A stretch of DNA of 14,071 nucleotides from a virus (IMGVR_UViG_2711768037_000016:1-14071); one strand, 5' to 3'; shown: positions 7,856 through 8,824, counted from the first letter of the stretch. Numbers and translations: made by a program. The notes: a model not told the origin generated them from the letters alone.

Positions 7856-7987
7856 AGCACAGCTCCAATATTAACTTTACAAATCAAGAATACATCAAGA
7901 ATAAATTAACATGCAAGTTTCAAAAGGATCGAATACACTAAAATCAAGTTAATATTTAAGTGTATAAAGCCTCGACAGGAACTCACC
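7856..7987. promoter_or_regulatory. Divergent immunity-region promoter/operator (OR-like) between the cro-like and repressor genes
   Basis: AT-rich 132 bp. Inverted 11-mers AATATTAACTT (7867-7877) and AAGTTAATATT (7946-7956). Tandem direct repeat ATCAAGAATA at 7883-7892 and 7894-7903. AAATCAAGTT at 7941-7950. -10-like hexamers TAATAT and TATAAA upstream of the repressor SD AGGAA. Confidence 0.6.
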
Positions 7988-8677
7988 ATGAAGAATGTAA
8001 AAAGCACAGAAAATCGGATAGCAATGATGCTGAAAACAAAAGGCTGGAGTCAGGCTGAACTAGCCCGTAAGCTGGGTGTAAGCGCACAATCAGTACAATA
8101 CTGGACTACAGGAAAGACGTTTCCCAGAAGCGATAAACTTGCACAACTATCAGTAATTAGTGGTTATCCACAATCCTGGTTTTTGGGTGAAGACACCTCA
8201 TCAACACTTTCTTCAGCTGAAAAACACCATACAAGAGAAGACAGCGTTGTGTTCAATGTACTGGATGTTGAATTCAGCTGCGGCGACGGAACTCATGTTC
8301 GGGGAGATCTAATTGATGTTGTACGCTCAATAGAACTTGATCCTGAATATGCCCGCCGCCTGGTCGGTAACAGAGCATTCAAGAACATAGAAATTGGTAA
8401 CGCCAGAGGGGACAGCATGGCCCCAACAATCTCCCCAGGGGACTTGCTGTTTTTAGATAAAACAGTAACTTATTTTGACGGTGATGGCATTTATGCATTT
8501 TGCTTTGATGGCGAATGTTACATCAAACGACTTCAAAAAATTGGAAGCAAGATCATGGTCTTATCAGACAATCCCAACTATCAGCCATGGAGCATCGAAA
8601 AAGAGGGAATGGCGCTGCTATATATCCAGTCAAAAGTCATCTCATCGGTACCATTCAATATCAACAGATTTGGTTAG
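7988..8677 (+). CDS. CI/LexA-like prophage repressor (HTH_XRE N-domain plus S24 peptidase autocleavage domain)
   Basis: 229 aa. HTH WSQAELARKLGVSAQSVQYW. S24 motifs GDSMAPTISPGDLLFLD (catalytic Ser) and YIKRL (Lys). SD AGGAA lies 6 nt upstream of the ATG. Confidence 0.9.
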   Translation: MKNVKSTENRIAMMLKTKGWSQAELARKLGVSAQSVQYWTTGKTFPRSDKLAQLSVISGYPQSWFLGEDTSSTLSSAEKHHTREDSVVFNVLDVEFSCGDGTHVRGDLIDVVRSIELDPEYARRLVGNRAFKNIEIGNARGDSMAPTISPGDLLFLDKTVTYFDGDGIYAFCFDGECYIKRLQKIGSKIMVLSDNPNYQPWSIEKEGMALLYIQSKVISSVPFNINRFG

Positions 8678-8741
8678 TTATTGATTTTAAATTAAATTAT
8701 TGGTCACACATTACAAAAAAATCAAGTTTATCAATTTTTGA

Positions 8742-8770
8742 TTGACACGCGTTTTCCTGATACATAATAT
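8742..8770 (+). promoter_or_regulatory. Sigma70-type promoter (pL-like) driving the accessory operon
   Basis: TTGACA (8742-8747), 17-bp spacer, TAATAT (8765-8770); alternatively CATAAT with a 15-bp spacer. Flanked by operator-like motifs AAATCAAGTT (8719-8728) and ATTAACTT (8792-8799) shared with the OR region. Confidence 0.5.
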
Positions 8771-8824
8771 CTCACCATCAATTATATATTGATTAACTTC
8801 AACTTAGAATTGCATGGTGATGAT

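Follow-up and report, generated by a model that had tools for sequence, protein, structure and literature searches.

The 14,071-nt viral DNA stretch IMGVR_UViG_2711768037_000016:1-14071, analyzed as a whole and referred to as the window herein, carries one type of 17-bp dyad-symmetric element at five places, three between the divergent cro-like and cI genes and two at the lambda pL-like promoter beyond cI. Our best explanation, to which as a whole we assign a probability of roughly 0.8, is that the window holds the immunity region of a lambdoid, Shiga toxin (Stx)-type Escherichia coli prophage integrated at mlrA, and that its S24-family repressor cI, and very probably Cro, recognize the element as a common operator in the right operator region (OR, between cro and cI) and the left operator region (OL, at the pL-like promoter). 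A preliminary description, made from the sequence of the window, had proposed that the same repressor and/or Cro-like protein controls both regions, and the comparative evidence supports this.

One 17-bp element at five conserved positions

Relatives of the module were drawn from six E. coli prophages, in which it is 75-97% identical at the DNA level, from three loci in other genera and from 80 viral contigs, yielding 68 distinct pairs of flanking regions with cI proteins 72-100% identical. We aligned 15 representatives from E. coli, Citrobacter, Pseudocitrobacter and metagenomic viral contigs. In this alignment the element has the family consensus ATCAAGTTTAACTTGAT, with the putative half-site geometry ATCAA-N7-TTGAT, and occupies five fixed places. 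These are listed below with their scores in a weight matrix that was symmetrized and derived solely from relatives with a cI no more than 94% identical to that of the window; invariant columns are those of the 15 relatives.

7864-7880: putative operator OR-d, TCCAATATTAACTTTAC, degenerate in the window; matrix score 8.2 bits, sixth best in the window
7894-7910: putative operator OR-b, ATCAAGAATAAATTAAC; 17.3 bits, third best; 14 of 17 columns invariant
7943-7959: putative operator OR-c, ATCAAGTTAATATTTAA; 14.4 bits, fourth best; 10 of 17 columns invariant
8730-8746: putative operator OL-a, ATCAATTTTTGATTGAC; 19.1 bits, second best; 13 of 17 columns invariant
8777-8793: putative operator OL-b, ATCAATTATATATTGAT; 19.9 bits, best in the window; 12 of 17 columns invariant

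Measured from start to start, the sites lie 30-31 and 49-50 bp apart in the cro/cI region and 47-48 bp apart at the pL-like promoter, and this spacing is kept in all relatives. Within the OL sites, 25 of 34 columns are invariant, compared with 6 of 106 in the remaining OL intergenic region; the corresponding counts for OR are 29 of 51 and 16 of 81. Both OL sites are perfect or near-perfect palindromes in the relatives farthest from the window. For instance, OL-b is perfect (ATCAAGTTTAACTTGAT, or ATCAAGTTAAACTTGAT in relative L090) in seven of the eight most distant, and distant relatives have ATCAAGTTTAACTTGAC at OL-a, the last five bases of which are part of the -35 hexamer. OR-d aligns with ATAAAGTATAACTTGAT or ATCAAGTTAAAATTGAC in distant relatives and overlaps CTCC (7863-7866), the Shine-Dalgarno sequence of cro.

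When the 14-kb window was scanned with the matrix, the top four matches were OL-b, OL-a, OR-b and OR-c, and the next scored 9.1 bits inside an open reading frame (ORF). At least three matches of 8 bits or more in the OR region were reached in none of 5000 shuffles, and at least two such matches in the OL region in 0.6% of 5000 shuffles. A complete 48.7-kb related Stx2a phage gave the same picture, with its top four matches (17-22 bits) all in the immunity region and the fifth at 9.1 bits. At comparable score, the operator type occurs nowhere else in that phage genome. A repeat finder returned no other repeated dyad in the two intergenic regions. The best match outside the immunity region of the window, ATAAAGGTTTCATTGTT (10578-10594, within a 190-aa ORF; 9.1 bits), which also occurs in a related phage (L092, 3927-3943), is probably due to chance.

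The short motifs named in the preliminary description fared unevenly. Its inverted pair, AATATTAACTT (7867-7877) and AAGTTAATATT (7946-7956), is exactly placed and 100% complementary, and none of 2000 dinucleotide-preserving shuffles of 7856-7987 produced an inverted pair of 11 nt, since the members of the observed pair are the central 11 bases of OR-d and OR-c. AAATCAAGTT does occur at 7941-7950, where it holds the left half of OR-c, and at 8719-8728, but the latter copy is kept only in relatives of at least 97% DNA identity; the pair extends to a 20-nt direct repeat (7934-7953 and 8712-8731) that is 85% identical. ATTAACTT was correctly located at 8792-8799, but its proposed link to the operators did not hold, as it shares only its first two bases with OL-b and the rest varies among relatives; we treat it as chance. 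The two regions are linked as had been suggested, but at the pL-like promoter the real evidence lies in 8730-8746 and 8777-8793, which had been overlooked. Measured against dinucleotide-preserving shuffles, the inverted pair stands out but the sharing between the OR and OL intergenic regions is only modest: the longest shared word is 11 nt (p = 0.037), and eight 8-mers are shared compared with 2.0 expected (p = 0.011). An earlier caution that AT-rich regions may share such words by chance was justified, and the window alone does not settle the matter. A search of the window alone with the half-site pattern was not significant, so the relatives were needed.

Literature searches returned no description of the 17-mer as an operator, nor of its first eight bases in a phage-operator context. 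The operator ATCAAGTTTAACTTGAT, its five positions and the 30/49/47-bp spacing appear to be undescribed.

Predicted promoters and the candidate binding proteins

The promoter elements predicted around the sites, and two further operator-like elements after cI, are as follows.

7887-7892, minus strand: predicted -10 of PR, the cro promoter, TATTCT
7911-7916, minus strand: predicted -35 of PR, TTGCAT, within the block TTAACATGCAAG, which is invariant in all relatives
7939-7944, plus strand: predicted -10 of PRM, the cI promoter, TAAAAT; the -35 is weak and variable
8721-8737: extra half-site, ATCAAGTTTATCAATTT; left half good, right half poor; matrix score 1.3
8742-8770, plus strand: pL-like promoter, TTGACA (8742-8747)-17-TAATAT (8765-8770); 10/12 in a consensus scan
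8799-8815: degenerate third palindrome in the 5' leader, TTCAACTTAGAATTGCA; matrix score -7.5 in the window; approximately 21 bp after OL-b

The pL-like promoter was confirmed where the preliminary description had placed it, with TTGACA at 8742 followed after 17 nt by TAATAT, and no other strong sigma-70 match occurs on the plus strand between 7500 and 9000. All relatives have it: TTGAC never varies, and their -10 is a TAxxxT hexamer in the same position. The right end of OL-a overlaps the -35 by 5 bp, and OL-b begins approximately 7 nt past the -10, at about +1.

For PR, the best positionally conserved candidate on the minus strand is TTGCAT (7916-7911), an 18-nt spacer and TATTCT (7892-7887), and OR-b fills this predicted spacer. 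In 9 of 10 relatives scanned, the three top-ranked candidates on the minus strand included a TAxxxT hexamer 16-18 nt from the invariant TTGCAT, and TATCCT was seen by eye at the position of the predicted -10 in relative L009. Alternatively, PR could consist of TTGATG-19-TAATAT (7893-7898 and 7868-7873). For PRM, TAAAAT at 7939-7944 is the candidate -10, and a TAAAAT -10 ranked in the top three on the plus strand in 7 of 10 relatives scanned, that of L081 being a second TAAAAT six bases upstream. While AAATCAAG (7941-7948) is invariant in 15 of 15 relatives, the first one or two bases of the hexamer vary (GAAAAT in L081-L087, TGAAAT in L010). OR-c lies over the -10 edge and the start site of the predicted PRM.

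Two further repeats were observed between cro and cI. At 7883-7904, a tandem 11-bp repeat, ATCAAGAATAC and ATCAAGAATAA, has a period of one helical turn. We considered it as an operator and rejected it, as the first copy scores 1.6 with the matrix and is confined to the E. coli groups; that copy more likely holds the predicted -10 of PR. A 33-bp inverted repeat at 7933-7965, ATACACTAAAAT and ATTTAAGTGTAT, has 9 nt between its arms and a center two bases from that of OR-c. It seems to be lineage-specific because its right arm is not conserved in relatives of 80% identity or less.

Beyond cI, most relatives (those of the L073/L006 group excepted) carry a G+C-rich hairpin and a T-run just after the cI stop codon, e.g., AACGGGCTTTGCCCGTTTTTTT, which look like an intrinsic terminator. 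The window (8678-8720) and its 97% relative have no such hairpin. Because it is missing in this lineage, transcription from cI may continue into the pL operon where no bound repressor stops it. The extra half-site at 8721-8737, where most other relatives carry the terminator hairpin, is confined to the window and its 97% relative; in L006 a separate, displaced copy occurs, ATCAAGTAAAA. The site aligned with the leader palindrome at 8799-8815 scores 20.6 bits in L006 (GTTAATTTTAAATTGAT) and 11.0 bits in L003. A 13-bp palindrome, ATCAATTTTTGAT (8730-8742), was rejected as a functional unit, as its right arm is not conserved (TTTTTAAT and TTTTTTCT in relatives) and what is conserved is the 17-mer with TTGAC as its last bases.

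The genes around the sites point to the protein that may read them. In the E. coli groups alone, the first pL gene encodes a protein with two helix-turn-helix (HTH) domains (2xHTH) or a shorter one with a single HTH domain; in the other relatives, its place is taken by genes for unrelated proteins with no HTH. OL-a and OL-b persist, in better form, where the first pL gene encodes one of these unrelated proteins. The HTH of cI is nearly invariant among the relatives, and so is its presumed recognition helix, SAQSVQYWTTG, with one substitution plus S/T before the helix. Since the OL sites are kept while the first pL gene is swapped, and since the cI helix and Cro are conserved, the comparison argues for cI and/or Cro, and not the first pL gene product, as the binder.

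The identity of the binding protein, the placement of PR and PRM and the direction of regulation are inferred from these data. With cI dimers bound at OL-a and OL-b, the pL-like promoter would be occluded in the lysogen and the early operon, from the 2xHTH gene to xis and int, silenced, cI at OL-b (+1 to approximately +17) blocking RNA polymerase and OL-a covering the upstream edge of the -35. The preliminary description had regarded this operon as accessory; it is not merely that but the early-left operon running to xis and int, and its proposed silence in the lysogen is what the positions of the sites suggest. At the other region, cI on OR-b and OR-d would occlude the cro promoter, with OR-d covering the transcript start and the cro Shine-Dalgarno sequence. 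The overlap of OR-c with the predicted PRM could provide negative autoregulation, or shut-off by Cro as at lambda OR3. Upon induction, RecA-stimulated self-cleavage of cI would free both promoters at once. GDSM, (I/V)KRL and the Cys-Gly in FSCGDG are invariant in 12 aligned cI relatives, and, with the roles of the catalytic and cleavage-site residues assigned by analogy with LexA and lambda cI, these motifs are consistent with such cleavage.

Comparison with known switches and alternative explanations

The region appears to work like the switches of lambda, 434, P22 and HK022 and has most of the defining features of lambdoid immunity: a divergent HTH/S24 repressor and Cro, the catalytic and cleavage motifs, three OR sites that overlap predicted promoters and the same operator type at pL. 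The 23-24-bp operator spacing and an N-type antiterminator as the first pL function are absent from this set. As in lambda, cI (HTH plus an S24-type self-cleaving domain) and cro diverge with three 17-bp, partly symmetric operators between them, and the same operator type lies across another promoter, located past cI and pointing away from it to xis and int. In contrast to lambda, the operator sequence is unrelated, two OL sites, not three, are conserved, cI is preceded by a leader that includes a Shine-Dalgarno sequence, and cro is followed not by cII but by Rha/Ash genes. At that place, three consecutive Rha/Ash-type genes (antirepressor-like in PHROGs) and a DUF4222 gene occupy 5125-7552 on the minus strand. 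The pL-operon products examined in Pfam and PHROG gave no N family match, the first pL gene product being the 2xHTH protein, and nut sites were not searched for.

HK022 has the closest experimentally studied repressor that we found, with 35% identity over the whole cI protein. Its operators are likewise annotated in OR and OL, overlapping PR and PL (X16093). However, the HK022 sites are 15 bp long (TGAAC-N5-GTTCA) compared with the 17-bp ATCAA-N7-TTGAT here, so that the specificity is not of the HK022 type, and the HK022 pL leads to nun. P22 c2-type operators (ANTNAAG-N4-CTTNANT) were also considered and rejected; AATCAAG fits as a half-site, without an inverted partner at that spacing by eye.

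A different palindrome was seen in the Salmonella prophage Fels-1, whose cI is 42% identical (that of ST64B is 37% identical). In Fels-1 (locus L093, 970-1053 and 1811-1900), TATGT-N7-ACATA occurs six times compared with 0.17 expected, with three copies between the cro analogue and cI and three after cI, one of which contains TTGACA. The 5-N7-5 geometry and 17-bp length are the same as in the window, and two of the three sites between cro and cI are 49 bp apart. The half-site differs (TATGT/ACATA vs. ATCAA/TTGAT), and two Fels-1 OL sites lie 19 bp apart rather than 47. The geometry is thus retained and the sequence differs along with the repressor, which is the behavior anticipated of cognate operators. 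We know of no experimental description of the Fels-1 operator set. Among Shiga-toxin phages, 933W reportedly has two repressor sites in OL and three in OR, according to work by Koudelka and co-workers. The 933W repressor belongs to a different type, CI-2, in a 2024 preprint (10.1101/2024.03.06.583675).

Several alternatives to a cI/Cro operator were weighed. Chance likeness of two AT-rich intergenic regions, with no common regulator, might produce shared short motifs, given their 25-31% G+C, k-mer sharing only modestly above shuffles (p = 0.01-0.04), the lack of conservation of both ATTAACTT at 8792-8799 and the 8719-8728 copy, and a crude half-site pattern that is unenriched across the window. 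We consider this highly improbable: the five 17-bp sites keep position and sequence across relatives while their flanks diverge, the relative-built matrix places its top four matches in these two regions in the window and likewise in a whole phage, and shuffles rarely or never reach the observed site numbers. Binding of a host protein such as IHF has even less to recommend it. Although ATCAA is the core of the IHF consensus WATCAANNNNTTR, the full consensus has no match in either intergenic region, its sole match in the window lying inside a gene (7352-7364); the dyad symmetry, which is perfect over 17 bp in relatives, suits a dimeric HTH protein and not the asymmetric IHF site, and Fels-1 carries a different palindrome in the same places. 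That the pL palindromes serve instead as autoregulatory sites for the 2xHTH protein would fit its two HTH_3 domains, the regulator name that PHROGs gives its family and the leader palindrome at 8799-8815, which is restricted to E. coli-group relatives (better in L003 and L006), all of which have the HTH gene, and is absent from distant relatives without it. We nevertheless find this very unlikely, with OL-a and OL-b perfect or near-perfect palindromes in relatives whose first pL gene encodes an unrelated non-HTH protein and the same sequence type present three times between cro and cI.

Slightly less remote, but still improbable, is that one immunity protein only (e.g., Cro alone) reads the sites and that the S24 repressor acts via other DNA or protein contacts. 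Sequence comparison cannot tell Cro and cI apart here, as both are conserved along with the sites; on the other side stand the near invariance of the cI recognition helix across relatives keeping the sites and the absence of another repeated dyad in the two regions by repeat finder. To our knowledge, cI and Cro share operators in every characterized lambdoid switch (lambda, 434, P22 and HK022), which we also count against a single binder. Lastly, the sites could be read by cI and yet leave the pL-like promoter active in the lysogen, with repressor at OL-a (center at approximately -39) as a class II-type activator or neutral and the operon consisting of lysogen-expressed accessory genes. The 5-bp overlap of OL-a with the -35 can be compared with lambda OR2 at PRM, the missing terminator hairpin may let cI transcripts enter the operon anyway, and the operon carries moron-like genes, an SPFH protein and a membrane protein. 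We give this little credence, however, as the -35, a consensus TTGACA as it stands, has no need of an activator, OL-b at +1 to +17 is in a blocking position and is the best-conserved site, and an operon ending in xis and int is not expected to be driven by a strong promoter in a stable lysogen.

A number of observations do weigh against operators shared by cI and Cro at repressed promoters. The window's own sites are degenerate, with 4-6 mismatches to the 17-bp consensus, and ATCAA-N7-TTGAT with two mismatches is unenriched window-wide (14 matches vs. 10 expected); because of this, the case depends on the relatives. Only one specificity is present across all relatives found, so covariation within the family is absent and the covariation argument depends on Fels-1 alone. 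The PR and PRM predictions are weak consensus matches. The spacing of 30, 49 and 47 bp compared with 23-24 bp in lambda means that lambda-style adjacent cooperativity cannot be assumed, and the overlap of OL-a with the -35 is comparable to the arrangement at lambda PRM, where OR2 occupies an activating position.

Prophage context and distribution

The 2.1 kb around the immunity region is 100% identical to a prophage of E. coli MFDS1006657 and 96-99% identical to long-tailed Stx2a/Stx2d-converting phages of Shiga toxin-producing E. coli. In an annotated E. coli record, mlrA adjoins the prophage, with Q, replication genes, Ash/Rha-type regulators and cro in this order on one strand and, on the opposite strand, the XRE/S24 repressor, an HTH gene, small genes, an SPFH gene, xis and int. 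The genes next to the sites in the window are listed below.

7598-7855, minus strand: cro-like gene, 85 aa from GTG 7855; Pfam YdaS_toxin/HTH and P22_Cro; PHROG 35, transcriptional repressor
7988-8677, plus strand: cI repressor, 229 aa; Pfam HTH_3 and Peptidase_S24 (autocleavage domain); PHROG 4
8825-9517, plus strand: first pL-operon gene; two HTH_3 domains (Pfam); PHROG 4836, 'CII-like regulator'

RefSeq/PGAP starts cro at ATG 7831 (77 aa). The 85-aa form from GTG 7855 seems more likely, because GGAG lies 7 nt upstream of this GTG and the extra N-terminal residues (NDYD/ND motif) are encoded in relatives; a homologous Cro was found in 12 of 12 relatives examined. In sequence searches of the PDB, Cro weakly matched the Xfaso Cro structure 3bd1, and the C-terminal domain of cI matched UmuD only. 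Phages with another repressor (Stx1a phages and Stx2_12E129_yecE) match the window only from approximately 9086 onward. Because of this breakpoint, the N-terminal ~87 residues of the 2xHTH protein seem to travel with the immunity module, while its HTH domains would be common across immunity types.

Of 5426 complete E. coli genomes, 136 contain the immunity module, as do many long-tailed Stx2 phages. A 2024 preprint on Stx phages of O145:H28 divides the repressors of long-tailed Stx2a (L-Stx2a) phages into CI-4 and CI-5 and links repressor type to induction efficiency, Stx2 yield and virulence; CI-5 phages are widespread, poorly inducible and produce little Stx2, and the molecular basis is stated as open (10.1101/2024.03.06.583675). 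The window cI matches that of the 12E129 phage at the ompW-prophage site and of most other L-Stx2a phages, and, judged by the text of the preprint, it appears to be of the CI-5 type. We also observed that the spacing of OR-b and OR-c (49 bp) is close to that of OL-a and OL-b (47 bp), that both are conserved, and that the pairs lie approximately 835 bp apart. A tentative and rather unlikely idea is that two repressor dimers at the OR pair stand in register with two at OL and create, as in lambda, a loop between OL and OR in place of cooperativity between adjacent sites. Such a loop, combined with the missing cI terminator, could help explain the poor induction and low Stx2 yield of this repressor type, apparently CI-5 of long-tailed Stx2a phages.

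Operators shared between OR and OL are textbook lambdoid biology, and the principle is not new. The site map, useful rather than surprising, gives concrete targets for work on how CI type relates to induction.

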